From: Xylanibacter ruminicola 23
GTDB taxonomy: Bacteria > Bacteroidota > Bacteroidia > Bacteroidales > Bacteroidaceae
Reading direction: 5' to 3'
DNA: 32,000 bases
Assembly: GCF_000025925.1 (NCBI RefSeq)
Contig: NC_014033.1
Coordinates: 2,070,001 to 2,102,000 of the forward strand
Part shown: piece after piece, positions 2,613 through 32,000 of the stretch
Layout of the letters: each line of letters begins with the position of its first letter
Numbering within the stretch: position 1 is the stretch's first letter
Notes under the pieces: generated by a model
Told to the model about the DNA's origin: nothing
Databases searched by the model: none
What the model saw: only the letters and a program-made list of their open reading frames with translations
Translations under genes and position numbers: made by a program

Positions 2613-2616
2613 AATC

Positions 2617-2645: not shown

Positions 2646-2651
2646 TTTCGA

Positions 2652-6912: not shown

Positions 6913-6921
6913 AATTGGTTG

Positions 6922-6929: not shown

Positions 6930-6931
6930 AG

Positions 6932-10796: not shown

Positions 10797-10797
10797 A

Positions 10798-10832
10798 TAA
10801 TGTTTAATGCTTAATTTTTAATGTTTAATATC
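10798..10832. repeat. Heptad-periodic array (5 units) spanning the GH26 stop and the GH130 leader
   Basis: TAATGTT TAATGCT TAATTTT TAATGTT TAATATC. Confidence 0.8.
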
Positions 10833-13127: not shown

Positions 13128-13174
13128 TTTTTAATTATCGATTGTCGTTTTATTTAATTTTAAGTTTACGGCTG

Positions 13175-13182
13175 CAAAGTTA
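13175..13182 (-). promoter_or_regulatory. -7 promoter box TAACTTTG upstream of the mannan operon
   Basis: Plus strand caaagtta, reverse complement TAACTTTG, 48 nt upstream of ATG 13127. Confidence 0.4.
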
Positions 13183-13242
13183 CGACATCTTTCTTAAACT
13201 GCAATACTTTTTTTTGCTCAATCATTACACTTTTCCACCAAT

Positions 13243-13526: not shown

Positions 13527-13535
13527 TGGCAGAAA

Positions 13536-14120: not shown

Positions 14121-14147
14121 ATCGTTTCCATTTATTGGTTTCGGTTG

Positions 14148-14155
14148 CAAATATA
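14148..14155 (-). promoter_or_regulatory. -7 promoter box TATATTTG upstream of sod
   Basis: Plus strand caaatata, reverse complement TATATTTG, 28 nt upstream of ATG 14120. Confidence 0.45.
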
Positions 14156-14195
14156 CGAATTAATTTCTATCCACCAAGAGATTTAAGAAATCTTA

Positions 14196-14236
14196 TAAAA
14201 AAATTGAGCCGCAAGCATTTCTGCCTGCAGCTCAAT
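14196..14236 (-). terminator. Rho-independent terminator after the beta-barrel/PAP2 gene
   Basis: Arms 14203-14216 and 14223-14236 pair at 12 of 14 positions, with a 6-nt loop. On the minus strand the stem is followed by a T7 run (A-run 14197-14203). Confidence 0.6.
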
Positions 14237-14280
14237 TCCTTTTTCCGCGGATGTCAGGGACCTGTCCCCTAGCAGGGGAA

Positions 14281-16059: not shown

Positions 16060-16066
16060 TCGCTAA

Positions 16067-16094
16067 CTGTCAATTATCAATTGTCAATTATCAA
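16067..16094. repeat. Heptad-periodic array (4 units) between the sugar transferase and the beta-barrel/PAP2 gene
   Basis: CTGTCAA TTATCAA TTGTCAA TTATCAA. Confidence 0.8.
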
Positions 16095-16095
16095 C

Positions 16096-17571: not shown

Positions 17572-17607
17572 TCTTATCCCTAAAAGTTTGCTTTAAGTTA
17601 TTGGCGG

Positions 17608-17615
17608 CAAAGGTA
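17608..17615 (-). promoter_or_regulatory. -7 promoter box TACCTTTG upstream of the sugar transferase gene
   Basis: Plus strand caaaggta, reverse complement TACCTTTG, 37 nt upstream of ATG 17571. Confidence 0.4.
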
Positions 17616-17710
17616 CTGCTATTTTTGCGAAAAACTAAATTTTCATTAAAGTTTTTCCATTATTTAACCAAACTTCGACTGAATTCACCTAAAAATTGTT
17701 TAAATCACAC

Positions 17711-17768
17711 CAAAAAAGCCAAAAATTAAGCGCCTGATGGTAGCCTCAACGCTACTCACCAGGCGCTT
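17711..17768 (-). terminator. Rho-independent terminator closing the RloB/ATPase operon
   Basis: 9-bp outer stem AAGCGCCTG/CAGGCGCTT (17728-17736 / 17760-17768) plus 5-bp inner stem GTAGC/GCTAC. On the minus strand it is followed by AATTTTTGGCTTTTTTG. Confidence 0.7.
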
Positions 17769-17802
17769 GTTATTACTCGTACTGGTTCTTTCGCTTATGA
17801 TG

Positions 17803-18384
17803 TCACGAACCTGTCCCTTGGCTTTTTGACTCATCCTTTTTCAACAACTCTATTAATTTATATACCCCAGTGGATGGGTTCTGCAACTCCTTAAGATTCA
17901 TTGCCCTTGCAGTTGCTGTATCAATATTGCTCTTCAAAAAAGCTTCTTGCGTATCAGTAAAGTCCGTCTTCGAATAATTCCTCCAAACAGTCGCACTCTT
18001 CTTTAGTTCTTTAATGAGCGCATCTGTCGAAATAGCACTCTTTTGATCTTTTGCATGAAGCAGTATCCATATCTCGAAACAAGGATTACTAAGCAGCATC
18101 TCAGCTTTGCATGCCAATAATTTCTCATTAATAGATGGTACATCCATGTCATACATCAGGAACGTGTGTACCTTATCATATTTTGAGAGCTTGAGTTCCC
18201 TAGTGCGATTGTCTACAAGAGACTGCGTAATTTTAGTTCCTTCAATATGCGACACGATTCTAATTGGCGACTTATACCACTTCTTCAGGAGGTTTATATA
18301 GCGTTCTTCTGTTTCGCCCTCGCAGATTACAAGAGCAATTTTGCGCATCCGCATGGATGGGGATGGTTCTCTTTTACTTGCCAT
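17803..18384 (-). CDS. RloB-like (Toprim-like) protein, AbiLii-like partner of the upstream ATPase
   Basis: N-terminal IALVICEGETEERYINLL and central LLSNPCFEIWILLHA match my recollection of the RloB family signature. The ATG at 18384 lies 2 nt after the ATPase stop. Confidence 0.75.
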   Translation of the reverse strand: MASKREPSPSMRMRKIALVICEGETEERYINLLKKWYKSPIRIVSHIEGTKITQSLVDNRTRELKLSKYDKVHTFLMYDMDVPSINEKLLACKAEMLLSNPCFEIWILLHAKDQKSAISTDALIKELKKSATVWRNYSKTDFTDTQEAFLKSNIDTATARAMNLKELQNPSTGVYKLIELLKKDESKSQGTGS

Positions 18385-18386
18385 AG

Positions 18387-19616
18387 TCAACCTTCCAATA
18401 ATTGTTTGATACTAGAAACCGATGAATCTACATATGGTACAGCATCAAAACGCCCCTGCAAATAGCCCTTTTCGGCATCCATATTCTCGCGAAAATCCTT
18501 AAAGTCGTATAGTGAATATACATCTGTCGCTCCCTCTTCAGTCTTATTCACAAACACAATCTGGTCACGTCTCAACCTCCTTACATCAATTAGGTTCGTA
18601 TTGTGCGAGGTAAACAGTAATTGACTACTTTCGGAAGCGTGAATCAAATCCAGGATAAAATCAGCAAGGCGAGTATGAAGTCCCATATCAAACTCGTCCA
18701 TGATAATGCCTTTCTTATTCTTCACAACATCCAGCAAACGGATAAGAATCTGGAACAACTTTCGTGTACCATTAGATTCTTCCATATCCATGTCGAACAT
18801 AACATCCTTCTGATTGCGGTGGAATGTCTTAAATCTAAGTACATCCACTAACTTATACGACATCTCTGGTTGCCCAGGAATAGCTACAGGGGCAGGTACC
18901 TGTTCCTTTCTTGCCTCTATATCAGTAATATCTGTATCGCTTATCTCCAGAGCCTTAAGGATAACCTTTTTGTAAGTATTAAAGCTATCCAGCATCATCA
19001 TATCATTTACATTCACAAGTCCAAGAAGGAACTGATTCATGAAATAGCGATAAAGCTTTTGAGCAATCTCACGATTCATAGAACTGGCACGACTAAGGAA
19101 AAGATTCTTCACGCTCGTATTAGTGGCAACATCCGAAGGCTTTACCATTACGCCGGTACCAAAGCTATATTTCCCCTCGGCGTCACGAACAAAAACTTTT
19201 GCCCTCCTACCAACAGGATAATAATACAGACTTTCACTAAGAATACGCTCGCGAGTAAGTTCAAAGGAATATTCGTATTCCACATCCTCACATACAAAAT
19301 CAATCAAGAATTTGCTTGGTTTATTCTGCCATCCATCAAACTTAAATGGCTCGAAATTAAAGGTCACGCCCTCATTATGTAGGTGCGACTCAAGAATCAT
19401 TCTACAGCAAAAAGTGATAGCTTTCAGGATATTTGACTTACCTGAAGCATTAGGGCCAAACAGCCCAATCGATTTAAGCACAGGCACACCTTTCCACTCC
19501 ATAACATTGTGACTCAGCTCTCGAGCAAGTGCTGTATTAATGCTTGCAGCCCTAAAGTCAATCCTGATTCTGTCTCTGATAGAGAAGAAATTCTCAAATT
19601 CGATTTTAAGTATCAT
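18387..19616 (-). CDS. AAA_21/ABC-type ATPase, AbiLi / PARIS AriA-like
   Basis: N-terminus MILKIEFENFFSIRD, Walker A GPNASGKSN, Walker B IIMDEFDMGLH, and downstream LLFTSHNTNLID. Start trimmed from the ORF-track TTG 19646 to ATG 19616. Confidence 0.8.
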   Translation of the reverse strand: MILKIEFENFFSIRDRIRIDFRAASINTALARELSHNVMEWKGVPVLKSIGLFGPNASGKSNILKAITFCCRMILESHLHNEGVTFNFEPFKFDGWQNKPSKFLIDFVCEDVEYEYSFELTRERILSESLYYYPVGRRAKVFVRDAEGKYSFGTGVMVKPSDVATNTSVKNLFLSRASSMNREIAQKLYRYFMNQFLLGLVNVNDMMMLDSFNTYKKVILKALEISDTDITDIEARKEQVPAPVAIPGQPEMSYKLVDVLRFKTFHRNQKDVMFDMDMEESNGTRKLFQILIRLLDVVKNKKGIIMDEFDMGLHTRLADFILDLIHASESSQLLFTSHNTNLIDVRRLRRDQIVFVNKTEEGATDVYSLYDFKDFRENMDAEKGYLQGRFDAVPYVDSSVSSIKQLLEG

Positions 19617-19643
19617 TACATCATTGATTTTGTAGATTTTCTG

Positions 19644-19651
19644 CAAAAATA
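19644..19651 (-). promoter_or_regulatory. -7 promoter box TATTTTTG upstream of the ATPase/RloB operon
   Basis: Plus strand caaaaata, reverse complement TATTTTTG, 28 nt upstream of ATG 19616. Confidence 0.45.
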
Positions 19652-19742
19652 CAACTTTAATTTGATTTTTGTACAGTTTTACATAAAAAAGTAGTTACAA
19701 CACACCTATTTTTAACAACGGTTAATAATTCAACAATATTTT

Positions 19743-19973
19743 TTATTCATATTGATTCTTACGTTTATACTCTTCCATTAGCGACAAGAGTCTTCTAAAC
19801 ATTTCAAGTCGTTCTGGTTTCATTTTACCAGCATTAAGAGCCTTCCTATTCGCCTTTAGCCAGTTAAGCATATCATGATCTTCAATCCGATGGCGGGATG
19901 GATTGCGGTGGTTGCTATCTATGTAATCAACCACCTCATTGTATCTTGTCAACCAACGTTCGTCTTGCGTCAT
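19743..19973 (-). CDS. Helicase-associated (HA) domain minigene
   Basis: 76 aa. The W...Y...V..Y...N.RNPS.......L.NWL..NRK..NAGKM..ER...F..LL pattern fits a single HA-domain repeat. Confidence 0.6.
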   Translation of the reverse strand: MTQDERWLTRYNEVVDYIDSNHRNPSRHRIEDHDMLNWLKANRKALNAGKMKPERLEMFRRLLSLMEEYKRKNQYE

Positions 19974-20052
19974 ACTTCAAACAATCAACTTCAGACTTCT
20001 AGCTAATGCCCCCTTAGCTACGTAGACTTCTGAATTGACCGTTTACTCAACT

Positions 20053-21024
20053 TTAATTAGCACCCTCTTTATCTGAAGATTTATATAATAGGTAATACTT
20101 GTTAATTCGTCGGACTTTAAAAAACACAATTATTATTGTTGGCAATAAACCAATTGCCAATGGAACGCTTAATCCTAATAAAAATGACATAGAACGAAGA
20201 TTCATCCGCTTATATTGAAATACAGGAACATACCGTTTTCTAAATTCATCAATATTAATTTTTTTCGGTCGTAATTCAAGACAAAAATCTTTTATTGAAC
20301 GACTATTAAGTTCTATCATATTATCATCAGAAACCATACATGAATATTCCATTCCTGTTTCGCAATCTTTATAAATCACATCATCAGAATTATCGAATAG
20401 CAACACGCCTCCATAAAACAAAGACAAAACTATTACATTTGCTAAAACTAACAAATAAAAACGTCTCATCGGGATATAACTACGCAACTCATCCCCTTTT
20501 TCAACATCACATGTATTTTGAATACGATGAGAAAAAGTAATCTTGCGATGTAAGTCATTTAAGGAAGACAATTTCTTCTCATTCTCATATTCCACAAGTG
20601 CTTGGAGCTTTATATATTCATTAACACGAAATAAACCAAAACACAAAGAGGCATTTCTGTTGGTTTCATTTGTTATCGAGAATTGAGCATCAACACCCTC
20701 GGAACAAGAATCTATCTTAACATCTAACCACTTATAACCTTCTGGAAGACACATATGAACCACGTTATTACTTCCTGTCAAATCGGCATCACCATTACAA
20801 GAAATGATTCCACTCAGTAATATTACATTATTTCTTATTGGTTTGTCATTCTTAAGGACCTCTATACTATCAAAACCCTTGATCAAGTTCCAATATATAT
20901 TGATTGTTTCAGAAGGATAATATGTCAACTTGCATGGTCGACGCTTTCTCTTAAACAAATCAATAGATAAAACTCCAAAAACAATTGTCGCAATTAAACC
21001 AAGTATTCCAATAATCATTTCCAT
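20053..21024 (-). CDS. Hypothetical membrane protein with three predicted TM helices
   Basis: 323-aa ORF in very AT-rich DNA. Hydrophobic segments IIGILGLIATIVFGVLSIDLF, FYLLVLANVIVLSLFYGGVLLF and FLLGLSVPLAIGLLPTIIIVFF. No family recognised. Confidence 0.6.
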   Translation of the reverse strand: MEMIIGILGLIATIVFGVLSIDLFKRKRRPCKLTYYPSETINIYWNLIKGFDSIEVLKNDKPIRNNVILLSGIISCNGDADLTGSNNVVHMCLPEGYKWLDVKIDSCSEGVDAQFSITNETNRNASLCFGLFRVNEYIKLQALVEYENEKKLSSLNDLHRKITFSHRIQNTCDVEKGDELRSYIPMRRFYLLVLANVIVLSLFYGGVLLFDNSDDVIYKDCETGMEYSCMVSDDNMIELNSRSIKDFCLELRPKKINIDEFRKRYVPVFQYKRMNLRSMSFLLGLSVPLAIGLLPTIIIVFFKVRRINKYYLLYKSSDKEGAN

Positions 21025-21224
21025 CTATTCAGATATTAATACTATTAATTTAAAAAAATGCTACTAAATCAAAATGAAAGAACCAGCCCCTAAGGCATCT
21101 ATAAGTACCTGTATCATATCCGTAAATCCAAACATTCTCATTATTCGTAATACTCGTAGTCCCTTATTGATTTCCGATATCAGAAACTCTCCTCCATCCA
21201 TCTCCTAAAGAGAGGAAACGGCCA

Positions 21225-21503
21225 TCATTTCTCATAATACCCCTTTTCGCTATACTGAGACCAGCGGAGGTACATCTCTTGATAATGTTCCTTGATAAAC
21301 TCAGAGATTTTGGAAATCTCACGGTCATTGAGAATGCCGCGATTCTGGAGAACGGTATCACCGTTGTTCTTAACGAAGAATTTTGCTGATCCACCCTCGG
21401 TTAGCTTACTGTCACTAGCATGCACATGCATACACTCCACAACACAGAAAGAAGTAAAATACAAGTAATAACCTGCCACTTTAAAATCATAGTACTTCGG
21501 CAT
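21225..21503 (-). CDS. DUF4160-like small protein
   Basis: 92 aa. MP start, aromatic beta-strand region and the MHVHA His motif resemble DUF4160. Starts 3 nt after the preceding gene. Confidence 0.55.
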   Translation of the reverse strand: MPKYYDFKVAGYYLYFTSFCVVECMHVHASDSKLTEGGSAKFFVKNNGDTVLQNRGILNDREISKISEFIKEHYQEMYLRWSQYSEKGYYEK

Positions 21504-21506
21504 CGT

Positions 21507-21728
21507 TCAGTCCTCCATAAATTTAAGATTCTGTTTGAGGTAACGACTGGCTATGGATAGTTCGATATCGTCCATAGTAGTTTCCAGCACCTCACCATCC
21601 AAACTGAACACAACAGCCTTATCAGGACTGTTCAGGTTAAGCACATGTATACAATCATCCTTGCGGGTAAATGCATACCCATTAACAATTATATCTGCCC
21701 CATCGGCAATGCTCTTAATATCAGGCAT
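21507..21728 (-). CDS. Hypothetical small protein (73 aa)
   Basis: Tightly packed between the two neighbouring genes: 8-nt overlap upstream and 3-nt gap downstream. No family recognised. Confidence 0.5.
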   Translation of the reverse strand: MPDIKSIADGADIIVNGYAFTRKDDCIHVLNLNSPDKAVVFSLDGEVLETTMDDIELSIASRYLKQNLKFMED

Positions 21729-22029
21729 AAGCTATACGTACTTTTTTTATTGGTTTTAAAAAGGTTTCTGAATCGATATATAATCCCTCGAGAATTGGCT
21801 TCAAGTCAATGTACTCCTCCTCGGGTTCTGCATTATGGATATACTTGGCCAGCACCACCAGATAGCCATTATCCCACTTCACAACATCCACATACCTTTC
21901 CAAGCTATATGGTGCTTTGAAACGGATATGATACCCTCCAAAGCAGAAAGCAGTAAAGCCATCCGAATTACTAAGAATAGCTTCATTACTACAACTGGTA
22001 GAGTTTTTTGATATCGATGTTGTTACCAT
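21721..22029 (-). CDS. Hypothetical small protein (102 aa), first gene of a three-gene mini-operon
   Basis: ATG at 22029, preceded by a TATCTTTG box. Overlaps the next gene by 8 nt. No family recognised. Confidence 0.5.
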   Translation of the reverse strand: MVTTSISKNSTSCSNEAILSNSDGFTAFCFGGYHIRFKAPYSLERYVDVVKWDNGYLVVLAKYIHNAEPEEEYIDLKPILEGLYIDSETFLKPIKKVRIAYA

Positions 22030-22061
22030 AACAATATTAGCCTTTCGTATTATTTTCGTCG

Positions 22062-22069
22062 CAAAGATA
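22062..22069 (-). promoter_or_regulatory. -7 promoter box TATCTTTG upstream of the small-gene trio
   Basis: Plus strand caaagata, reverse complement TATCTTTG, 33 nt upstream of ATG 22029. Confidence 0.45.
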
Positions 22070-22080
22070 ATAATTTATTC

Positions 22081-22165
22081 TCAAAATTATAGCATCTTAT
22101 ATTCAAAATACGCCAAAATTATATCAAATTATATTAAAAACATCAAAAATTATACTAAAATTATA
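22081..22165. repeat. Five direct copies of (C/T)AAA(A)TTATA within 85 bp, just upstream of the trio promoter
   Basis: Copies at 22081-22091, 22114-22123, 22125-22133, 22144-22154 and 22155-22165. Several reverse complements read TAATTTTG, which itself matches TAnnTTTG. Confidence 0.6.
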
Positions 22166-22213
22166 GTAGGTTATCCCATTTTTAGAAGTTCACTTATATT
22201 TCAAACACCCCGC

Positions 22214-22239
22214 AAAAAAGAAAACCAGCACTCATGCTG
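22214..22239 (-). terminator. Weak terminator candidate after the Abi-alpha operon
   Basis: On the minus strand: CAGCA-TGAG-TGCTG (5-bp stem) followed by GTTTTCTTTTTTG. Confidence 0.35.
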
Positions 22240-22309
22240 CCTTTCCTTTATTCAATTCGTATTGAATCTTCCGTTTGCGCCTTGGCATCCAACGATTTTC
22301 TTGCATCAT
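22232..22309 (-). pseudogene. Internally deleted remnant of an HA-domain minigene
   Basis: Translates to MMQENRWMPRRKRKIQYELNKGKAA. The 5' end ATGATGCAAGAAAATCGTTGG resembles ATGACGCAAGACGAACGTTGG of the 19743-19973 gene. The 3' end AAACGGAAGATTCAATACGAAT resembles its AAACGTAAGAATCAATATGAAT. Confidence 0.5.
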
Positions 22310-22349
22310 AGAAAGAGAGTATCATTATAACATTTGTAGATTGTTCGTC

Positions 22350-23132
22350 TCATTCAATACACGCATTCAGAAAAAGTCTGCCAAAAGGCGTTAAGCGAAT
22401 AAAACTTTCCTCAACATCTATCGATTTAAACTTTTGGGGAACAAGTTCATTTCTTAAATCGTCTAACCCATTTTTCTTATTAATAGCATCATAGTTTTCC
22501 CTGTATATCTTATATTCACCAGACATATCTACGAGAAGCCCCAGGCTTATAAGATTATAAATATACGCATTCATATTTTGGGGAAATGTAATTTTCGCAT
22601 TATCATCCAGCAATGTCAAATGTTCTTTCAGTTTAACAAACCCTTCAGCATCATTCAAATTTGCATTGTAAGAACAATATTCCCAATCTCTTTTATACTG
22701 AAAGCATCTCATTATCCTCGCTTCATCTGGAGAGATTCTCTCTATAATTGATACAAAAGATGGGTGTGCAGTATTAACCATATCCACACTTGAAGCATTA
22801 GCCAACAAAGTTGTAAACATGTCGGCAATTTCTTCATTTGTTGTGTAAGTAAGCTTCTCAATAATTGGTGTTCCTAATTGGGGATGAACCTTACATCTCT
22901 TTTCCTCAGGAATCTTTTCCAATTTTTCTTTATAATCATCAAGATTCTTTTTAAAAGTCATTTTCAACTTCTCATTTTTCAACTTTAAAGGTAACAATAT
23001 TGCAGTACTAAACTCAAATACAGTACCTAAAGCATTACCAATGGCCCTCACACTTGGCTGTGCCAAATCTTTATAGATCTCTCCCAGAATATTTGGGGTT
23101 GCTTTTACTATGTCAACTATTTCATTTTCCAT
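22350..23132 (-). CDS. Abi-alpha (DUF4393) family abortive-infection-like protein
   Basis: 260 aa. The N-terminal region (IVDIVKATP...YKDLAQPSVRAIGNALGTVFEF...IPEEKRCKVHPQLGTPIIEKLTYTTNEEIADMFTTLLANAS) follows the Abi-alpha family pattern as I recall it. Starts 1 nt after the upstream gene. Confidence 0.7.
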   Translation of the reverse strand: MENEIVDIVKATPNILGEIYKDLAQPSVRAIGNALGTVFEFSTAILLPLKLKNEKLKMTFKKNLDDYKEKLEKIPEEKRCKVHPQLGTPIIEKLTYTTNEEIADMFTTLLANASSVDMVNTAHPSFVSIIERISPDEARIMRCFQYKRDWEYCSYNANLNDAEGFVKLKEHLTLLDDNAKITFPQNMNAYIYNLISLGLLVDMSGEYKIYRENYDAINKKNGLDDLRNELVPQKFKSIDVEESFIRLTPFGRLFLNACIE

Positions 23133-23133
23133 T

Positions 23134-23793
23134 TTATATTTTATCTCTATTGTTGATTGATTTTTTTACTGAATCTGGTAAGATTTCGTACAACGACTCG
23201 ATTTCTTTTGGTTCAGAAATCATACGTTCAGTAATCATATTAATAAGGTGCATTAACGTAATTGCAGTATTCATATCATCAACATCGAAAGATATCACAC
23301 CAGGGTGAACAGCTTTATTACCCACAACACGGACTACATCCAATGCTTGTTGAATGATCTTTGGAAGCCCTTTCATAACAAGAGCACCAATATTATTATT
23401 AATATCTCTATCTACTTCTCCAAGCTCATTACATAGTCTATCTATCGCCAAACGCAATAAAGCGCAAGCAGCCCTAGGAGACTTATTATATATAAGTCCA
23501 GCTTCATTGTAGAGTTGTTTCACCCTTTCGGGCATATCAACATTAGGTTCTTCAGCAATAATATCAGGATACACATAGGTATTGTTAACCCAGATAATCT
23601 TTTTCCCACAGCTAACACATCTTGCTATAGATAGTTGATTACTGTATTCTACTATATTACCGTCCTTTGTAAAGACATTACTAGTATCCTCATTAAAATA
23701 ATGAGTAGCCCAGGTCATTAATGACAAAGTATGGCAATGAGGACACGTAAAGGATTTCTTCCTTTTCTCTGGTGCGACATATAAATTTCTCAT
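23134..23793 (-). CDS. Zn-ribbon + DUF4145 (HEPN-like) domain protein
   Basis: N-terminal CPHC...(41 aa)...CVSCG cysteine pairs. DUF4145-like core PRAACALLRLAIDRLCNELG and an R-x2-GN-x3-H motif (VRVVGNKAVH). Confidence 0.65.
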   Translation of the reverse strand: MRNLYVAPEKRKKSFTCPHCHTLSLMTWATHYFNEDTSNVFTKDGNIVEYSNQLSIARCVSCGKKIIWVNNTYVYPDIIAEEPNVDMPERVKQLYNEAGLIYNKSPRAACALLRLAIDRLCNELGEVDRDINNNIGALVMKGLPKIIQQALDVVRVVGNKAVHPGVISFDVDDMNTAITLMHLINMITERMISEPKEIESLYEILPDSVKKSINNRDKI

Positions 23794-23835
23794 ATCACAA
23801 ATGATTACAATCGCAAATTAAAATCACAAAAAGCA

Positions 23836-24273
23836 TCAAATCATCCCAAACAACTTTTCAGCCAGTCTCTTATTTGCTTCCTTCTGACCTATTGCATCCA
23901 AGTCATCATTATAATTTTTCTTTATCCATACCAGTTCGGCATTTATACTCTTGGCATAATTATCCAAAGCCTTACGTCCCCTCCCCTTTGTTCTTGTAAC
24001 AGTAAAAAGGATATCACAAGGATTCTGCTCAACAAACTGAATATTTGCTTTAACAATATCATCAGTATCTCCAGGAGGACATATATCCACAACGATTCCA
24101 TGTCTATCAACAGACTCACACATATCCTTATCTTTACCGAACTTCACTTCTGCATCAGAAATATTAATACCATGAAGCAGACTTCTAAGAAATATTCCTA
24201 GCGTCTCACTTTTCCCACATTTCCCTCTACCGTATAATCCAATAATCTTCATATATTTTTTGTTTTTTATCAT
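23836..24273 (-). CDS. Small P-loop NTPase-like protein (145 aa; start may be the second Met at 24252)
   Basis: Walker A GRGKCGKSE near the N-terminus and a candidate Walker B IVVDICPPGD. Lies 42 nt upstream of the DUF4145 gene. No family recognised. Confidence 0.55.
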   Translation of the reverse strand: MIKNKKYMKIIGLYGRGKCGKSETLGIFLRSLLHGINISDAEVKFGKDKDMCESVDRHGIVVDICPPGDTDDIVKANIQFVEQNPCDILFTVTRTKGRGRKALDNYAKSINAELVWIKKNYNDDLDAIGQKEANKRLAEKLFGMI

Positions 24274-24287
24274 TCTATTTTCCGAAG

Positions 24288-24295
24288 CAAATTTA
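24288..24295 (-). promoter_or_regulatory. -7 promoter box TAAATTTG upstream of the P-loop/DUF4145/Abi-alpha operon
   Basis: Plus strand caaattta, reverse complement TAAATTTG. It lies 15 nt upstream of ATG 24273 and 36 nt upstream of ATG 24252. Confidence 0.45.
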
Positions 24296-24485
24296 AGAAA
24301 AAAAACCTATACTTCCAAATTAAATGCGCGAAAAATTGCTAAAATACGGCATAATATCGCTCCATCCGGGGCTTTTACTCTAAAATTTACAGCAAATTAA
24401 TCTCGATTACAAAGAGAATTCACCTTTTATTATTAAAAAAGCATTATTTTTATCCACAATCGCGAAGAATCTGAAGATTTTTATG

Positions 24486-24493
24486 TAATTTTG
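24486..24493 (+). promoter_or_regulatory. -7 promoter box TAATTTTG upstream of the M42 peptidase block
   Basis: taattttg lies 10 nt upstream of ATG 24503, which implies a very short leader. Confidence 0.4.
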
Positions 24494-24502
24494 CAAATTG
24501 AT

Positions 24503-25537
24503 ATGGAATCATGGTTGAAAGACATATTGCACAAGATGCTACTGACAGCAAGTCCGTCAGGCAGCGAAGAGCAAATCACAGCGCTCTTTGCTGAGCAGTT
24601 ACGTCCCTTTGTAGATGAAGTAACCACCGACGTCAATGGCAACTGCATTGCCCACAAACAGGGCACTGGGCCAAAAGTTATGATCATGGCGCATGCCGAT
24701 GAGATTGGCTTAATGATTAGTTACATTGATGATCGCGGTTTCCTATATTTCAAAGAAATTGGCGGTATCGACACAAATCTTCTCCCCGGTCAGCGTGTAA
24801 ATATCATGGGGCAGCAAGGCCTTGTAACAGGCGTTATAGGCAAGAAGCCCATACATCTTCAGGACAAATCCGAGAACACCAAGCAGCTCGAACCAGAAGA
24901 CCTTTGGATCGATATTGCCGCCAAAGATAAATCAGAAGCACAATCCAAGGTTCAGATTGGTGATGTAGCCACTCTCCAAGGAAATCCTGTACAACTTAAT
25001 GACACCCTTCTCATGTCCCGATCACTAGATGACAAAATCGGTTTGGCAGTCTTGATGGGTCTGGCACAGAATTTGCAGTCCCTGCAAACAGATAAGGACA
25101 TCTATTTAGTGGCCTCCGTACAGGAAGAATTAGGTGCACGCGGTGCAAAAATGATAACTGAGGCTATACGCCCAGATATAGGCATTGCCATTGATGTAAC
25201 CCATGCCACTGACTATCCCACCATGTCACCCACAAAAGATGGTGACATCAGCCTAGGCAAAGGTGCTGTCATCCCTATGGGGCCTAACATGAGTAAAGGT
25301 ATCAACCAGCAGCTCATCAGCTTGGCAAAATCCAATGGCATCCCCTATCAGATAGAGGCCATTGCCCGCCCCACAGGCACCGATGCCCGCGAGATACAGG
25401 TTGCCGGCACTGGCATCCGAACAGGATTGATCAGCATTCCCTGCCGATATATGCACACCCCTTCGGAAGTTGTATCATTGGCAGATGCAGATAGTGCAAT
25501 AACCCTATTGTCGGCTTATTTGCACACTCGAGAATAG
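24503..25537 (+). CDS. M42 family metallopeptidase (FrvX/YsdC-type aminopeptidase)
   Basis: SPSGSEE near the N-terminus, MAHADEIGLMI, SRSLDDKIG and VQEELGARGA are M42-type motifs. Start trimmed from TTG 24491 to ATG 24503. Confidence 0.8.
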   Translation: MESWLKDILHKMLLTASPSGSEEQITALFAEQLRPFVDEVTTDVNGNCIAHKQGTGPKVMIMAHADEIGLMISYIDDRGFLYFKEIGGIDTNLLPGQRVNIMGQQGLVTGVIGKKPIHLQDKSENTKQLEPEDLWIDIAAKDKSEAQSKVQIGDVATLQGNPVQLNDTLLMSRSLDDKIGLAVLMGLAQNLQSLQTDKDIYLVASVQEELGARGAKMITEAIRPDIGIAIDVTHATDYPTMSPTKDGDISLGKGAVIPMGPNMSKGINQQLISLAKSNGIPYQIEAIARPTGTDAREIQVAGTGIRTGLISIPCRYMHTPSEVVSLADADSAITLLSAYLHTRE

Positions 25538-25572
25538 ATAACATTATGTCAAACTAAAAAACGATTGAAAAG

Positions 25573-25683
25573 ATGAAAGAGAATTTTTCTATTTCTTTCG
25601 ATTGGGAAGTTAAGACAGCTGAAGATACAGAGCGCATAGGCGCCATGTACTGCTTCAAGCGCTGCGACGTAAACCAGAACTAA
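25573..25683 (+). CDS. Candidate RiPP precursor peptide (36 aa), absent from the ORF track
   Basis: ATG at 25573 to TAA at 25681-25683 translates to MKENFSISFDWEVKTAEDTERIGAMYCFKRCDVNQN. It has an acidic leader-like N-half and a C-terminal CxxxC. It lies about 100 nt upstream of an RRE+SPASM radical SAM gene. Confidence 0.5.
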   Translation: MKENFSISFDWEVKTAEDTERIGAMYCFKRCDVNQN

Positions 25684-25730
25684 TCCCCTGATCAAGGATT
25701 AGCTTTACCAGCAGCATTATCCCAATTGGG

Positions 25731-25763
25731 TTGAGGTGACAGCAGAGACTGGTGTCACCTCAA
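25731..25763 (+). terminator. Perfect 11-bp hairpin (attenuator or terminator candidate) between the peptide ORF and the radical SAM gene
   Basis: TTGAGGTGACA (25731-25741) and TGTCACCTCAA (25753-25763), with an 11-nt loop, followed by TTATTAAATTT. Confidence 0.5.
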
Positions 25764-25786
25764 TTATTAAATTTGAACCACATGAC

Positions 25787-27124
25787 ATGAGGCAGCATTC
25801 TCAACTACAAAGCACCGACCACCTCATCTTTCCTGATGAGATTATTTTCCGACCATGCGATGAAGGATGGTTGGTTATTTCTGTGCTTACTGCCAACTGG
25901 TTGGTCATAAAATCTAACTTTCAAAAACATCTTCTACAACAGTTGATTAATGGCCACTCTATTGGCGAAGTCTATACATCTTTGCAAACCCAAGACGAAC
26001 AGACTCAATTCAAGCAACTTCTGGCTGCTATCACCGCCCGTAGTTTCGCAGGTATCAACACTGCCCCAGTTTCTCAGTACTTAGAGGGTTATCGCATGCT
26101 TAACATCTACCTCACCAATGCCTGTAATCTGCGATGCGAGCACTGTTTCATGCGCTCAGGTAAGCCATTAGACAACGAACTACCAAAGACAGAGTGGCTT
26201 CGCATCCTTACCGAGTTTCAACACCAGGGAGGTAAAAGTGTAACTTTTTCTGGAGGAGAGCCTCTGATGAACCGCGATTTTAACGACATCCTTATACATG
26301 CATCAACACTTGGTTTAGAAACCACAGTGCTATCTAATGGCATCCTTTGGACCGAGGATCGCATTAATCAGCTCGCCCCATATATCAGTCAGATACAGAT
26401 TAGCATAGATGGTTTCGACGAGGCCTCCAATGCCAAGGTGAGAGGTAAAGGACATTTCGACCGAATTGTGCATAACGTCATACTCTTCGCTAACACAGGT
26501 GCCCGCACATCTGTAGCCACCACCTTTACATTCCAGAATCTCCAGTACGATGCAGCCGAGCGTTATCAGCAGATGGTTAGTTACATCAAGAACCAATGTC
26601 AGCACTCAGTATTCTTCAAACTCAGCAAGAAGGTACTTCAAGGACGCAACACTCACTACACTGAAGCTCAGAACAAGGAGTTTTTCATGCGTATTATGGA
26701 AATTGAGCACGCCTTAGATCCTGATGCCAAGTATAATAACTTCATGGAAGGTCATACCCCTAATCTAATTGAGCGCAACTGTGGCTTTGGCGGTATCTCC
26801 ATAGGTGCCGATGGCGAGGTGTATTATTGCAATCGCATCTCTGAGGTCGATAGCTATGGTAATATCAATGGCAGACCGATAAAACCATTTATGGAAAAAG
26901 GCCATCAGCTCCACCTGCAAACTTCGGTCGATAATCTCATCCCCTGCCGTACTTGCCATCTGCGTTTTATCTGCTGTGGTGGCTGCCGCATTGACGAATG
27001 CAACTTCCAAGGCAAGCTTCAAAACCATACTGGAGCACTTCGACAGGTAAAATGTAACGATGACCAAATACACCGTATGGAACGCAAGATGATAGATAGT
27101 TATTTATTTTATTACAAATTCTAG
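25787..27124 (+). CDS. Radical SAM / SPASM-domain peptide-modifying enzyme with N-terminal PqqD-like RRE
   Basis: CX3CX2C motif NACNLRCEHCF. C-terminal Cys-rich SPASM-like region CGFGG...YYCN...CRTCHLRFICCGGCRIDEC. The N-terminal ~90 aa (GWLVISVLTANWLVIKSNFQKHLLQQLINGHSIGEVY) look like a PqqD/RRE fold. Start set to ATG 25787, because the ORF-track GTG at 25736 lies inside the hairpin. Confidence 0.8.
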   Translation: MRQHSQLQSTDHLIFPDEIIFRPCDEGWLVISVLTANWLVIKSNFQKHLLQQLINGHSIGEVYTSLQTQDEQTQFKQLLAAITARSFAGINTAPVSQYLEGYRMLNIYLTNACNLRCEHCFMRSGKPLDNELPKTEWLRILTEFQHQGGKSVTFSGGEPLMNRDFNDILIHASTLGLETTVLSNGILWTEDRINQLAPYISQIQISIDGFDEASNAKVRGKGHFDRIVHNVILFANTGARTSVATTFTFQNLQYDAAERYQQMVSYIKNQCQHSVFFKLSKKVLQGRNTHYTEAQNKEFFMRIMEIEHALDPDAKYNNFMEGHTPNLIERNCGFGGISIGADGEVYYCNRISEVDSYGNINGRPIKPFMEKGHQLHLQTSVDNLIPCRTCHLRFICCGGCRIDECNFQGKLQNHTGALRQVKCNDDQIHRMERKMIDSYLFYYKF

Positions 27125-27128
27125 ACCT

Positions 27129-29366
27129 ATGATATATCGGTTACTTTGCATCTACGAAACATACGGAAACAGCACCATCCCTCAACTCCGTATCGAAGTC
27201 AATCTGGATGGCAAGAGTTCCTCTTTGGCACCTTTCCAACGCAAGGTAACACTTAGCGACCTTCTGGCCGATGCATCCACAAATGGGCTCCACCCCTCAG
27301 CGCTATGCCAACTAATAAACCATGCAGGCCTTATCAGCCAACCATTCTGTATTGACAGCAGGCTTGTTTGTCACCCGCTTGTTCAGCGCATACTCCAGGA
27401 TCATCCCTATTCTTATGTTAAAGCCACCCCAAAATCCAGCCTCAAGCGCATCGCTAATCCACCTTCTTTCATCCATCCATCGTCTATCGTTTCAAATCTC
27501 GCATCATCCGTTCCATCAGGAGTTCTCTATATAGATAATCCCGCTTCGTGGCACCGCAACATCAAAGTACGTTTTCACTATAACGATGCACTCAGTGATT
27601 TCTATCCCACATACTCACCTCTCCCATATCTTTCTAGCTTAGGTTCGCTCATGCAGCGCAACGAACAGGCAGAAATCGAGCTCTTGAATATGTTAGGCGA
27701 GGATTACAATTCTGCCACAGCCACATTATCATTTAAGGATACAGATACCGAGAGTCTCGCAGAACTCACTAAAAAAGGCTGGACACTCTACGTATCCAGC
27801 CCCAACAAAGCCGCATATAGGCTGTATTACCATCACGAATCATCAGGCATCAACTGGTTCTCTACCGATCAAGATGTTGACCAATCCGAGTTTGCCCATC
27901 AACTCCTTGATGGCTATCTCCATCGTCGCAACTATCATGAGTACGATGGACATATAATATTGTTCAAGAAAGAGGATGCCACGATATCTGATGACAAGAC
28001 ATTGGCTCAGCAGTTAGATGCTTCCTTCGATGTACGTCAACTATATGCCGATTCCCTACCACTCACTAATGCCGAGATAAATGACATTAAAACGACTCTT
28101 ACTAATCAGCTACACGCAACACTGCGCCCCTATCAACTTGATGGAGTTATGTGGTTGCAGCAACAACGTAAAAACAATCATGGTTGCCTCTTAGCTGATG
28201 AGATGGGCCTTGGCAAAACCATTCAGATTATTGCCCATCTATGTTGTTTGGGTAATGATAGACAGCACCTGATAATTGCCCCCACCTCTTTAATATATAA
28301 TTGGCAGAACGAGGTTAGTAGGTTTGCGCCGCAATTATTACAACAGCTCACCTTTGTAAGTTACGATATGCTGCGCATACATCTTTATGAATATCTGCCA
28401 GTGTTTTACGATACAATTATAATCGACGAGGCTCAAGTGATAAAGAATCGTCAAACCAAGAAATATCAGGCCATTAGCCAATTACATTGTAAACACAAGA
28501 TAATCCTTACAGGCACTCCTATCGAGAATTCCATTGATGAGCTTTGGTCGCATTTCATCATGCTCATGCCCCCTATGCAGTCACTCTATCATCACTTGCA
28601 TGCATTGGGTATTCAAGCTGTGCCCGAGGTATATATCACTCTATCCAGCAAGTTTCTAAAGCCTTTCATACTTCGTAGAGAAAAGCAAATGGTACTACAA
28701 GATTTGCCAGACCGTATTGAGAAGACTGTATATATTGAACTTAACGAATCCGAACGAATCAAATATAAACAGGTGCATGCCACTATACTCCAAGCATTCG
28801 CTTCAGGAATAAGTGGCCGTATTAGTAGTTTGGCCTTAGAGGGCCTTCTTCGTTTACGCCAGGCTTGCATCGCTCCTAAGTACCAAACAGTTATCGACTA
28901 TATTGAGACGTTTCGTTCTGAGGGGCGCAAGGTTTTACTTTTCTCTCAATTTGTCAGCGCACTTCACGAGTTAGAGGCACGTTTGTCATCAGCAGACATT
29001 CACTTTGTAACTCTATATGGAGACACCCGTAATCGCGACATCCCTGTACGCCAGTTCCAAAGCGATTCTTCTATCACTGTATTCCTTATCAGCCTTAAGG
29101 CTGGTGGTTTCGGCCTCAATCTCACCTCTGCCGATCGAGTTATTCTTTTAGACGACTGGTGGAATCCTGCAGTCGAAGACCAAGCCATGGCACGTGCTCA
29201 TCGCATCGGCCAGAAGAACAATGTTCTTGTTCTCCGATTAGTCTGCAAAGACACTGTCGAAGAAAAAATTCTTCAACTTCAAGCTCAAAAGCGCCAAACC
29301 GTCGATCTCTTCAACAACACCTCAGAGAAGCTAACTTTAGAAGAGATTCAAGCCCTGATTACCTAG
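27129..29366 (+). CDS. SNF2-family helicase/translocase with bacterial SNF2-associated N-terminal region
   Basis: LRPYQLDGVMWL, LLADEMGLGKTIQ, DEAQVIKN, LTGTPIEN and SLKAGGFGLNLTSADRVILLDDWWNPAVEDQAMARAHRIGQ. The N-terminal part includes a GINWF...DGHIILF segment like the SNF2_assoc domain. Starts 4 nt after the radical SAM stop. Confidence 0.88.
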   Translation: MIYRLLCIYETYGNSTIPQLRIEVNLDGKSSSLAPFQRKVTLSDLLADASTNGLHPSALCQLINHAGLISQPFCIDSRLVCHPLVQRILQDHPYSYVKATPKSSLKRIANPPSFIHPSSIVSNLASSVPSGVLYIDNPASWHRNIKVRFHYNDALSDFYPTYSPLPYLSSLGSLMQRNEQAEIELLNMLGEDYNSATATLSFKDTDTESLAELTKKGWTLYVSSPNKAAYRLYYHHESSGINWFSTDQDVDQSEFAHQLLDGYLHRRNYHEYDGHIILFKKEDATISDDKTLAQQLDASFDVRQLYADSLPLTNAEINDIKTTLTNQLHATLRPYQLDGVMWLQQQRKNNHGCLLADEMGLGKTIQIIAHLCCLGNDRQHLIIAPTSLIYNWQNEVSRFAPQLLQQLTFVSYDMLRIHLYEYLPVFYDTIIIDEAQVIKNRQTKKYQAISQLHCKHKIILTGTPIENSIDELWSHFIMLMPPMQSLYHHLHALGIQAVPEVYITLSSKFLKPFILRREKQMVLQDLPDRIEKTVYIELNESERIKYKQVHATILQAFASGISGRISSLALEGLLRLRQACIAPKYQTVIDYIETFRSEGRKVLLFSQFVSALHELEARLSSADIHFVTLYGDTRNRDIPVRQFQSDSSITVFLISLKAGGFGLNLTSADRVILLDDWWNPAVEDQAMARAHRIGQKNNVLVLRLVCKDTVEEKILQLQAQKRQTVDLFNNTSEKLTLEEIQALIT

Positions 29367-29367
29367 A

Positions 29368-29706
29368 TTACAAATTCTCCTTCACATAGATTGCCACACT
29401 GATTCGTTTATTTTCATCAGCTTTTTCATCAAAACGACAGACTTTACATAGGAACAACTTATTATCATTCCATCCTGCCTCTAAAAACTTCTTAATGTCT
29501 ATCGCATCATTTTTATTCAGAACGCCAATTTTTTTTGCATCCTCCGGATTTTGAGCTTGAGTGTAAAGTGACACTTCCTTCCCGTCTTCATTAACATCCA
29601 ATTTGAAAAGAAAATTTGTTCCTAATTCTTTTATTTCCTTTAAAACCTCTAGTGCCTGGAACTGGTTAGTTTTTTCCAAATAACATTCTTTCAAATATAT
29701 ATCCAT
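29368..29706 (-). CDS. Hypothetical 112-aa protein co-transcribed with the deaminase (weak HIRAN-like resemblance)
   Basis: Starts 11 nt after the deaminase stop. The segment VSLYTQAQNPEDAKKIGVLNKNDAIDIKKFLEAG...RISVAIYV loosely recalls the HIRAN pattern (NPxD, IGxL, basic/hydrophobic C-terminal strand). This is a low-certainty call. Confidence 0.5.
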   Translation of the reverse strand: MDIYLKECYLEKTNQFQALEVLKEIKELGTNFLFKLDVNEDGKEVSLYTQAQNPEDAKKIGVLNKNDAIDIKKFLEAGWNDNKLFLCKVCRFDEKADENKRISVAIYVKENL

Positions 29707-29717
29707 AATTTCAATAA

Positions 29718-32000
29718 TTAATGTTTAAACCTTTGCTCTAATGACATTTGACGTACACGATCAAGCCAGTCAACGATAGCCCTGGGTGAATTCTTATGAT
29801 TCTCTGTCTGATTCCATTCTAAAGCCAATGCTAATAAAGAATATTCTCTTTCCAAAGATGTTGAAAACACGCCCTGATCATCAGTATTAATGGACACTGC
29901 AATATCGTGACGAGGATAAGGTGTAGAAAGCCCATAGTTAAAAAACTTCACTATAGGATGTTCATCGTAACGTTCTATCTCGCCAATCTTGTAGTTGGAT
30001 GAAGGATTGCATTCGATGGCAATATGCCTATTTTCAATCTTTTCTAACAATTGTTCCTGTATTTTTTCAAGCAATCTTACCCACTCTTCCCTATAATCTA
30101 GAGGAATTGTTAGAGTATCACCAACATTCCCCTTATCTGCATATCTATCAGAATGATATGCATCGTAAAGTCGTTTTGCGCGTTCGTTGCGTAGTGCGAC
30201 CTCAGTCCATTCATGATGATTGATGGCTGCCTTAACCCAAAGATAATCAATACCAGTCAAACTATTAAGATTCTTTGGTTCTAGATCCACACCAATTTTA
30301 GGAGAATGGCCTCTTAACAACCATGATAAGTAATAGTCCCGTATATCATCCGATAGTTCATCTTCATTTTCTTCTGTAAAAAAGGAATCAATGATGCTCT
30401 CACCTTCTTCCTCGTGATTCCTGTATATTTCTGTAAAATACTTCAAGAACATAATCTCTAACCACCCACATAGCTGTGTATATCCTGTCAAACGAATGCA
30501 TTTATGGTAAAGCCAAGCAAGATTATCCAACACGACCTGTTTACTTGCACAGATAGAGAAGCTACGCTTTGTATAATACTTAAGCACATCTGTTCCAAGA
30601 ACAAGAGCGTGGCCTAATCTGTCTCCATTCTTCAAATTTAGGAATATAAGCGCTTCTTCCACTGCTCTTAATCCATCTGCTATATCCATAAAATCCTCAC
30701 CTATATGATAAGTAACGTTTAGGTCGTCAGGATAACTATCCACATTATTATCATTCTCGATTTTATGAGATCTAAGAAATCTAAAAGCCTGCGCATACAC
30801 TTCTGGTCGGCAGAATATCTCAGAATTGGCAGCATCTAAGCCAACCACTTTACCTACCAGACAATTACCGTCTTTCCAATTATCCTTGTTACACCTAAAC
30901 TGATATATAGCATAAGCCTGTCTTTTTATTTGCTGGCGCAGATCATAATGCCTATATGATTTGTTTTTCCTCTCATCTCGCTGTTTAATAAAATGGAATA
31001 TAAAATCATAGTTATCAGTATATTTAGGATCTATCTCTTTACATATATCATTAAGCATTTTCACTATACCTGCTTCGGTTTCTTTGGGTACAATTCTAGC
31101 CTCCAAATGTCGCTGGTTATTTTTATCCTTTTCCAAAAAGCCTTCTATGGCAGCTTTGTATAGCAGATGATAATATTCATCTTGTATGAAATCTGTTTTC
31201 TTCTCTTCATAACTGGCAAAGTTAGCAAAGCCTACACGTTCATTAAGCTGCAGAATGTCATTTCTAAAGTAATTCTTATATGCCAAATATGCAAAGAAAA
31301 GAGTCGCAAGGTCCTGCTTTTCATTCGTTTTATCATTAAATAAGGTTTTAAATACCATATACATTAATTTTCTCTCCGAAGCAAGAACTTTGTTTTCAAT
31401 AGACTCACCACTATAATGACTAATAGGTATATAATCTAGGACGTCTAATTCAGTCAGATTATCTTTAATGTTGGGATTTGTTTTCAACTTATTAAACTCC
31501 TCAATACTTTTCACTTGATTGCATTTCCTTGCTTCACTAACTAACCCAAATACATCTACCGGCTCTTGACTCTTAGTTTTATCGTAGGTAACGTTATTCA
31601 ACTCATTACATAATTGGCCTAATGTAATTATCTCTTTCACACAGCCTACGGCTCCTGCCAAATAATAGCGGATAAGTGCCGCCTTTCGCATCTTCTCATA
31701 TAAGTCCTTATCGCTATCTCTATATTTATGGAATGGATACTCCTTCTCAAAGTGGCGCTGCATACACCAAATATTATTCATCATGCATTGCCAACTCAAA
31801 TCGAAATTAAACGACGAACCCTTCAAATGCATATGGAGTTCCGCCATAGGCTTTTCAAAAAGGAAGTTAAGTTCTTTGCTGTTATGGCCCAAGAATGCAT
31901 CCCAATCAAAACTCTTACGTTCATATTCTATGGCCAAGTCTCTTGAAGCCAAGAAAGAAGTTGTCAGTAAATCCTCCCCGACCAACGTTGTTAGCAGATG
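29718..32000 (-). CDS. Giant adenosine/AMP-deaminase-fold protein, RdrB (RADAR)-like; 5' end outside the window
   Basis: Ordered metal-dependent deaminase motifs ELHMHLKGS, TYHIGEDF, RLGHAL, ECNPSSN and SINTDDQGVF. About 390 aa separate HxH from HxGE, against about 200 in canonical ADA. The ORF-track start is TTG at 31985, but the frame stays open to 32000 (HLLTT upstream). Confidence 0.8.
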   Translation of the reverse strand, partial: HLLTTLVGEDLLTTSFLASRDLAIEYERKSFDWDAFLGHNSKELNFLFEKPMAELHMHLKGSSFNFDLSWQCMMNNIWCMQRHFEKEYPFHKYRDSDKDLYEKMRKAALIRYYLAGAVGCVKEIITLGQLCNELNNVTYDKTKSQEPVDVFGLVSEARKCNQVKSIEEFNKLKTNPNIKDNLTELDVLDYIPISHYSGESIENKVLASERKLMYMVFKTLFNDKTNEKQDLATLFFAYLAYKNYFRNDILQLNERVGFANFASYEEKKTDFIQDEYYHLLYKAAIEGFLEKDKNNQRHLEARIVPKETEAGIVKMLNDICKEIDPKYTDNYDFIFHFIKQRDERKNKSYRHYDLRQQIKRQAYAIYQFRCNKDNWKDGNCLVGKVVGLDAANSEIFCRPEVYAQAFRFLRSHKIENDNNVDSYPDDLNVTYHIGEDFMDIADGLRAVEEALIFLNLKNGDRLGHALVLGTDVLKYYTKRSFSICASKQVVLDNLAWLYHKCIRLTGYTQLCGWLEIMFLKYFTEIYRNHEEEGESIIDSFFTEENEDELSDDIRDYYLSWLLRGHSPKIGVDLEPKNLNSLTGIDYLWVKAAINHHEWTEVALRNERAKRLYDAYHSDRYADKGNVGDTLTIPLDYREEWVRLLEKIQEQLLEKIENRHIAIECNPSSNYKIGEIERYDEHPIVKFFNYGLSTPYPRHDIAVSINTDDQGVFSTSLEREYSLLALALEWNQTENHKNSPRAIVDWLDRVRQMSLEQRFKH

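Follow-up and report, generated by a model that had tools for sequence, protein, structure and literature searches.

The 32,000-nt stretch of Xylanibacter ruminicola 23 analysed here (contig NC_014033.1, positions 2,070,001 to 2,102,000; the whole stretch is called the window below) ends inside a gene for a large adenosine-deaminase-fold protein. This protein is almost certainly a member of the RdrB family, the deaminase family of RADAR, that stands without the RADAR ATPase RdrA. On balance we favour reading the locus as an RdrA-less derivative of RADAR in which an RdrB-type (d)ATP deaminase works within a six-gene module. Directly downstream of the deaminase gene, on the same strand, is a gene for a small HIRAN-like protein, and convergent with this operon is a quartet, by which we mean the genes for an M42 aminopeptidase, a 36-aa peptide, a radical-SAM/SPASM maturase and an SNF2 helicase. 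The six genes quite likely work as one functional module. In window coordinates they are:

24503-25537, plus strand: 344-aa M42-family aminopeptidase, first gene of the quartet (Pfam Peptidase_M42, 320 bits; gene call from contig L099)
25573-25683, plus strand: 36-aa precursor-like peptide, MKENFSISFDWEVKTAEDTERIGAMYCFKRCDVNQN, between the M42 and radical-SAM genes
25787-27124, plus strand: 445-aa radical-SAM/SPASM enzyme, peptide-maturase-like (Pfam Radical_SAM and Fer4_12)
27129-29366, plus strand: 745-aa SNF2-family helicase (Pfam SNF2-rel_dom and Helicase_C)
29368-29706, minus strand: 112-aa stand-alone protein, read as a divergent HIRAN-superfamily member (conserved open reading frame, predicted fold, profile linkage)
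29718-32000, minus strand: RdrB-family adenosine-deaminase-fold protein, residues 124-883 of 883 (translation, profiles, PDB match, predicted structure)

The deaminase belongs to the RdrB family

The deaminase open reading frame (ORF) lies on the minus strand, with its stop codon at 29718-29720, and stays open through 32000, giving 760 codons in the window; the initial annotation had described it in the same way, as a frame still open at 32000 and coding for at least 760 aa. The 5' end of the gene was taken from L099, a contig that is 100% identical to window positions 16065-32000 and runs 3.7 kb beyond the window. This places the start codon 369 nt outside the window and gives a full protein of 883 aa, the length also of P0001, a full-length homologue with 99% identity to the window deaminase. 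The TTG at 31985 that the ORF list gives as a start was rejected as an artefact of the window edge.

In the in-window translation, the four signatures that had been noticed at first (HMH, HIGE, GH and TDD) could all be read in that order, as ELHMHLKGS (H56/H58), YHIGEDF (H432 and E435), LGHAL (H464) and INTDDQ (D707/D708). The large gap reported between the first two is also real, although its length is 374 aa from HMH to HIGE and not the ~390 aa first given. E. coli RdrB has four zinc-binding His residues (H152, H154, H498 and H530) and a catalytic Glu, E501 (PMC9994260). P0001 residues H179, H181, H555, E558 and H587 align with H152, H154, H498, E501 and H530 of the E. coli protein, and the window deaminase thus carries the complete His tetrad and Glu of a RADAR RdrB. 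The tetrad, the Glu and the DD residues were unchanged across an alignment of 24 homologues.

Profile searches pointed to the same family. The NCBIfam RdrB model NF041744 matched residues 188-756 to model positions 248-845 of 850 (164 bits, E=5e-48), and the PADLOC RdrB models scored ~100 bits (best 103 bits, E=3e-30). The Pfam A_deaminase and NCBIfam adenosine-deaminase models matched only the C-terminal ~90 residues (648-738), far under cut-off, and the PADLOC CARF_ADA model gave a weak C-terminal match (45 bits). When all PDB sequences were searched, the sole real matches were those of E. coli RdrB (8fnv, 8fnw, 8hr7 and 8hrc; E 5.5e-25), which aligned as four colinear HMMER segments spanning the chain. 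We also built an AlphaFold2 (AF2) model of the deaminase on the family alignment (predicted local distance difference test score, pLDDT, 78.6; predicted template-modelling score, pTM, 0.79). In a Foldseek search of the PDB with this model, only RdrB chains were significant (E 2e-24, template-modelling (TM) scores 0.67-0.77, ~17% identity in the structural alignment), whilst Cad1, AMP deaminase 2 and classical adenosine deaminase (ADA) were not (E > 0.1). The predicted model has the RdrB-type architecture, with three large insertions in the deaminase fold and similarity along the whole chain. The initial annotation had judged the protein to be RdrB-like and no housekeeping ADA, and had proposed a hidden Markov model (HMM) or Foldseek comparison with RdrB, Cad1 and AMP deaminase; these comparisons single out RdrB.

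RdrA is absent from the locus and from close relatives

At first rdrA had been expected directly upstream of the deaminase, past the window edge, with any partner gene lying on that side. In L099, the deaminase is followed upstream by a 270-bp gap and then by a divergent 412-aa ORF, which had no family match, a 343-aa ORF and an amidase gene. These upstream genes matched neither RdrA nor any family in PADLOC or NCBIfam. A 95%-identical locus, L002, has a divergent 310-aa gene upstream of its deaminase. An RdrA HMM made from 28 RdrA-like upstream ORFs (26 canonical and 2 quartet-linked) recovered every one of the ~30 canonical loci in which the upstream gene is retained, and gave zero matches in the window, in L099 or in any of the ~65 loci of the main clade. 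The deaminase locus therefore has no RdrA AAA+ ATPase directly upstream on the same strand. The partners were found instead inside the window, downstream of the deaminase and convergent with it, and the evidence favours what had been offered as the fallback, a differently partnered deaminase system.

The same division was seen in a scan for the deaminase family across 185,579 species genomes (one genome per species). Distant homologues of RdrB, scoring 90-170 bits with the family profile, came from Proteobacteria, Flavobacteriia and others, and had a same-strand ORF of ~880-1150 aa, or fragments of one, directly upstream; the sole exception, L061, is cut at the contig end, and in spot checks these upstream ORFs were RdrA. 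Members of the close family (>1200 bits) came from Prevotella, Segatella, Xylanibacter and Bacteroides, and an RdrA-size upstream gene was never present.

The convergent quartet includes a near-invariant peptide and its putative maturase

The longest ORF of the first quartet gene starts at 24491, and its M42 product was under the cut-off of every NCBIfam aminopeptidase family. The 36-aa peptide encoded next has no Pfam, NCBIfam or PADLOC family, although it is annotated as a gene in public assemblies. Its ORF lies directly upstream of the radical-SAM gene in ~50 loci, and it was found in all loci that have both the M42 and the radical-SAM gene, with one exception. Its C-terminal core, ER[VI]GAMYCFK[RNH]CDVNxN, is near-invariant across Prevotellaceae and Bacteroidaceae, even where the N-domains of the accompanying SNF2 proteins are only 25-50% identical. 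Pairwise comparison of 29 DNA versions of the core gave 2904 synonymous against 441 non-synonymous codon differences, in a set gathered by sequence pattern and hence pre-selected for matching peptides. Judged by these codon differences, the peptide is translated, strongly constrained and under purifying selection.

Radical-SAM/SPASM enzymes cross-link short precursor peptides. The one encoded here (longest ORF from 25736) has a CNLRCEHC motif and a C-terminal Cys cluster in its translation, so that the CxxxCxxC motif, the SPASM cysteines and an adjacent Cys-containing precursor are all present. It falls in no curated maturase family: the best NCBIfam match, nearly full length, was to the StsB sactipeptide maturase at 134 bits, with a cut-off of 625.

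The SNF2 helicase has a family-specific N-terminal domain of ~320 aa (alignment A2). The window protein is 100% identical to X. ruminicola WP_080517188.1, and the radical-SAM protein is likewise 100% identical to an X. ruminicola protein; the public names of all module genes are generic. A single base separates the stop codons of the SNF2 gene (plus strand) and the HIRAN-like gene (minus strand) at 29364-29370, which leaves the two operons no intergenic space to hold a terminator. A promoter and terminator scan gave counts near the expectation from shuffled sequence, with models that are ill-suited to Bacteroidota.

A small HIRAN-like protein accompanies the deaminase

The small ORF starts 11 nt after the deaminase stop codon in the window. 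An ORF of 100-190 aa lies 3-49 nt 3' of the deaminase in every main-clade locus, and conservation at this spacing was counted in 49 loci. The protein had no direct match in Pfam, PADLOC or NCBIfam. AF2 folded it as a small beta-barrel plus two helices (pLDDT 72), and the best Foldseek match of this model was 3k2y (TM 0.68/0.73, probability 1.0, E 6.5e-3), which we take to be a HIRAN protein; K. lactis Rad5 was the third-best fold match. An exhaustive search with the small-protein profile returned 121 representatives, nearly all stand-alone, and none an informative fusion with a deaminase or a helicase. Of ten distant profile matches, four (P0338, P0335, P0336 and P0333) score above the Pfam HIRAN gathering threshold over a region that overlaps the profile match. 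Fold and transitive homology thus both lead to HIRAN, and we read the small protein as a divergent stand-alone member of that superfamily. In HLTF and Rad5, the HIRAN domain is joined to an SNF2 ATPase and recognises 3' ends of DNA, a pocket for the 3'-OH end of single-stranded DNA being a hallmark of the domain. PDB sequence-profile searches with the small protein and with the SNF2 N-domain returned noise only, and hhalign comparison of the SNF2 N-domain with the small protein was not significant.

Three further observations concern this protein. Deaminases of 955-972 aa (L069-L071 and L074) were considered as fusions of deaminase and small protein and rejected, since BLAST placed the extra length internally and an RdrA-like gene is present there instead. 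The top match of the small-protein profile, P0221, is a 6164-aa protein with 32 stretches matching profile positions 57-99, which is probably a repeat or compositional effect. Finally, in an unrelated 2.5-kb contig (L114 455-2306), the gene for the 389-aa Pfam HIRAN protein P0338 begins 2 nt beyond a radical-SAM gene of 226 aa, a second, independent adjacency of HIRAN and radical SAM.

Deaminase and quartet are consistently adjacent

Every deaminase-seeded locus with enough flanking sequence contained the quartet; five loci without it stop at a contig edge. Loci seeded independently of the deaminase gave the converse result: among metagenome loci found with the SNF2 N-domain, 33 of 35 informative ones had the deaminase, the two exceptions being L080 (low coverage, fragmented) and a 1-kb contig, and it was present at all 11 places found with the peptide. 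A wider profile search with alignment A2 returned only 10 fragments. The quartet was in none of the ~30 canonical RADAR loci examined.

Deaminase and quartet occur in three gene orders (31, 29 and 8 loci) and remain adjacent in all of them. In order b, where they are co-directional, the deaminase gene of intact loci follows the SNF2 gene at a spacing of -8 to +30 nt (mostly <=18 nt), and this overlap or near-abutment of the deaminase start and the SNF2 stop implies a single operon.

A neighbour-joining tree, crude but with clear groupings, placed canonical RADAR outside, followed by a quartet-linked grade that keeps RdrA and then by a monophyletic RdrA-less clade that includes the window. The RdrA-less clade carries the small HIRAN-like protein; the RdrA-keeping grade is without it. 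The association of deaminase and quartet predates the loss of RdrA. In L069, the RdrA-like gene of this grade scored 86 bits with the NCBIfam RdrA model and 59 bits with that of PADLOC. A protein like the Pycsar cyclase PycC (241-248 aa; PADLOC 54-85 bits) is encoded directly upstream of the RdrA-like gene in L069 (234-959), L074 (12372-13103) and L113 (10633-11379), with a match over the full model length in L113, and its gene often accompanies the RdrA-like gene in the RdrA-keeping relatives. We know of no description of a trio of PycC-like protein, RdrA and RdrB.

Genomic setting and distribution

In the window, 1-13 kb holds nuo and mannan-utilisation genes, and core genes up to 17 kb have ~50% GC; genes at 1-17000 include those for NADH dehydrogenase (nuo) subunits, a GH26/acetyl-xylan esterase fusion, GH130, an MFS transporter and an epimerase. 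From ~17 kb the GC content drops to 32-43%, marking an island boundary. The deaminase gene (36-39% GC) is AT-rich against the core genes, as had been observed initially, and the quartet has 39-46% GC. The defence neighbourhood suspected from the start is visible in two pairs of genes at 17.8-23.8 kb:

17803-19646, minus strand: AbiL-type pair of a 419-aa AAA_21 ATPase (PADLOC AbiLi, 271 bits) and a 195-aa RloB-like protein (AbiLii, 79 bits)
22350-23793, minus strand: adjacent defence candidates, an Abi_alpha protein (PADLOC PDC-S47, 331 bits) and a DUF4145 protein (PD-T7-4, 236 bits)

Between them, at 20.0-22.0 kb, are small DUF4160, DUF7723 and DUF7724 genes and a 323-aa ORF without a match. 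Elsewhere the flanks of the module vary by locus and include KAP NTPase, putAbiC, Qat, SLFN/Fic, AbiH and reverse transcriptase genes.

The clade was present in only ~22 of the 185,579 species genomes, which marks the module as accessory. RdrA-less members form >790 protein clusters at 90% identity, from rumen and human-gut Prevotellaceae and Bacteroidaceae. Three main-clade loci (L010, L012 and L024) come from metagenome-assembled genomes labelled 'Lachnospiraceae' or 'Gastranaerophilales', the rest being Bacteroidales, which reflects either mis-binning or horizontal transfer.

A proposed explanation and its alternatives

We propose that a Bacteroidales lineage with a divergent RdrB, an effector of the (d)ATP-to-(d)ITP deaminase type, lost the RdrA ATPase and came to use a module of two parts, the first comprising the RdrB-like deaminase and the HIRAN-like protein and the second the quartet. 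On phage infection the deaminase would, like RdrB, turn ATP and dATP into ITP and dITP and so block phage replication. The sensing or licensing role of RdrA would pass to the HIRAN-like protein, perhaps acting together with the SNF2 helicase. Peptide, maturase and aminopeptidase would probably yield a cross-linked peptide that may serve as a regulator, as a cofactor or as a separate antiviral arm. Comparison of the flanks of the loci revealed no conserved exporter or immunity transporter in the module, and this is why we suppose the peptide product to be intracellular. A more specific version, in which the HIRAN-like and SNF2 proteins detect phage DNA ends or replication intermediates and a peptide cross-linked by the radical-SAM enzyme and trimmed by the M42 enzyme licenses or restrains the deaminase, is offered tentatively, as a possibility that may well prove wrong.

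A number of observations weigh against this explanation. The 164 bits of the deaminase fall short of the NF041744 equivalog cut-off of 800 bits, so its substrate specificity and oligomeric state could differ from those of RdrB, whose subunits form a dodecameric shell, and the AF2 models (pLDDT 79 for the deaminase and 72 for the small protein) are of moderate confidence. The HIRAN assignment of the small protein is indirect: with Pfam HIRAN (PF08797), the window protein gave nothing at E<=0.01 and three variants nothing at E<=1, and hhalign of its profile with an approximate HLTF HIRAN sequence was negative. Because RdrA-keeping relatives have the quartet without the HIRAN-like protein, a HIRAN-SNF2 partnership is unnecessary for quartet linkage. 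The phylogenies of quartet and deaminase are discordant. In L104 (13800-15612) and L108 (11173-12988), a two-gene cassette of a 412-aa AAA_15 ATPase (PADLOC PDC-M29A, 225 bits) and a 192-aa protein separates the deaminase module from the SNF2 gene, and thus the junction tolerates foreign genes. A stable anchor beside a swap-prone slot could account for the linkage with no biochemical cooperation. Lastly, the function of the module is inferred throughout.

An alternative that we regard as unlikely, though it carries real weight, is that deaminase and HIRAN-like protein form a self-contained two-gene system. The quartet would then be a separate unit, be it a further cassette for defence or peptide biosynthesis or a block conserved at the species level, that only marks a preferred site of integration or exchange. 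The quartets of L107 and L113 are 95-96% identical, whereas their deaminase modules, one consisting of deaminase and HIRAN-like protein and the other of PycC-like protein, RdrA and deaminase, are 43% identical; the deaminase module is thus exchangeable, and the slot is always of RdrB type. Likewise, L099 and L105 are 91% identical in SNF2 and 68% in the deaminase. The two units are convergent operons in the window arrangement, other systems (PDC-M29A-like) sit between them, and the quartet radical-SAM gene occurs in three X. ruminicola genomes, two of which have the SNF2 gene, suggesting near-core status. Against such independence, the slot was of RdrB type in 44 of the 46 loci seeded without the deaminase and never held another system alone. 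Adjacency persisted through the three gene orders, including the single operon implied by order b, and the association is older than the loss of RdrA. The quartet-linked clade is also rare across species, hence the quartet is no general housekeeping block. Taken together, the pattern of linkage is better explained by a two-part system than by a generic hotspot.

The module also invites a reading as primarily a gene cluster for a ribosomally synthesised and post-translationally modified peptide (RiPP), with the deaminase and HIRAN-like protein providing self-protection of the producer or regulation and with no role in phage defence. A strongly conserved Cys-containing peptide, a radical-SAM/SPASM maturase and a peptidase are what such a cluster would contain. 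We consider this improbable, as there is no conserved exporter or immunity transporter, the flanks are variable, the peptide core is near-invariant across genera, unlike that of typical bacteriocins, and the deaminase partner comes from a validated anti-phage effector family.

A metabolic adenosine, adenine or AMP deaminase of purine salvage with lineage-specific insertions is highly improbable: the adenosine-deaminase family models do match, but only over residues 648-738 and far under cut-off, whilst whole-chain sequence and fold match RdrB alone and the distribution is patchy, in low-GC, defence-island settings. Finally, a canonical RADAR operon with rdrA just past the window edge, as the RdrB-like protein and the directly upstream RdrA of the ~30 canonical loci and the basal quartet-linked grade might suggest, can be dismissed with near certainty on the divergent, unmatched upstream gene in L099 and the blank RdrA HMM search of ~65 main-clade loci.

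Implications

The module looks like an undescribed RADAR variant of rumen and gut Bacteroidales. A literature search, mostly outside subscription journals, found no paper on RdrB without RdrA or with HIRAN, SNF2 or radical-SAM partners, and in PADLOC 2.0 and NCBIfam the module proteins obtain only sub-threshold or generic matches. Since the two-gene definition of RADAR in PADLOC (RdrA plus RdrB), and probably that in DefenseFinder too, would miss the module, RADAR-type immunity in Bacteroidales is probably under-counted. To our knowledge no signal sensed by RdrA has been established, and a large natural RdrA-less clade gives a point of comparison for studying what turns RdrB-type deaminases on. 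The near-invariant 36-aa peptide and its maturase, tied to an immune effector and with no exporter, are a lead towards an intracellular role for a modified peptide. If the more specific version of the explanation holds, a ribosomally made, modified peptide would be an internal component of an immune system and not a secreted product.

Comparison with known systems

The peptide part of the module resembles the pathways of sactipeptides and ranthipeptides, PQQ and mycofactocin, in which a short precursor with a C-terminal Cys core is likewise encoded beside a radical-SAM/SPASM enzyme and a peptidase. As in the PQQ and mycofactocin cofactor pathways, there is no conserved exporter in the window module. 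The window proteins differ in lying below every curated cut-off, and the peptide has no family. We found no description in the literature of a radical-SAM peptide pathway coupled to an SNF2 helicase and an RdrB-type deaminase.

With HLTF and Rad5 the module shares the joining of a HIRAN fold and an SNF2 ATPase, although in the window each has its own gene, in operons that converge, the small protein is not matched directly by Pfam HIRAN, and the SNF2 protein has an unrelated N-domain of its own.

Among adenosine-deaminase-fold enzymes, Cad1, the CARF-fused adenosine deaminase of type III CRISPR systems, has the same fold class, adenine-nucleotide substrates and an antiviral role. The window deaminase differs in having no CARF domain, and the Cad1 structure was no significant fold match. 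KomA of the Kongming system is reported to be an adenosine-deaminase-fold enzyme that acts on adenine nucleotides in antiviral immunity (10.1101/2024.12.20.629578); the window module is without Kongming-type partners.

The closest comparison is with RADAR itself (E. coli P0304799.3 and Citrobacter rodentium; 8fnv, 8fnw and 8hr7), where defence requires RdrA ATPase activity and docking of RdrA and RdrB (PMC9994260). The window module has no RdrA, its deaminase is ~17% identical to RdrB and ~85 aa longer, and it is accompanied by the HIRAN-like gene and the block of M42, peptide, radical-SAM and SNF2 genes that is absent from the ~30 canonical loci examined. Nevertheless, the window deaminase is a whole-length homologue of RdrB with the same His tetrad and Glu, has like RdrB large insertions in its fold (TM 0.67-0.77, on the predicted model) and a defence-island setting, and basal relatives beside the same quartet still carry RdrA.

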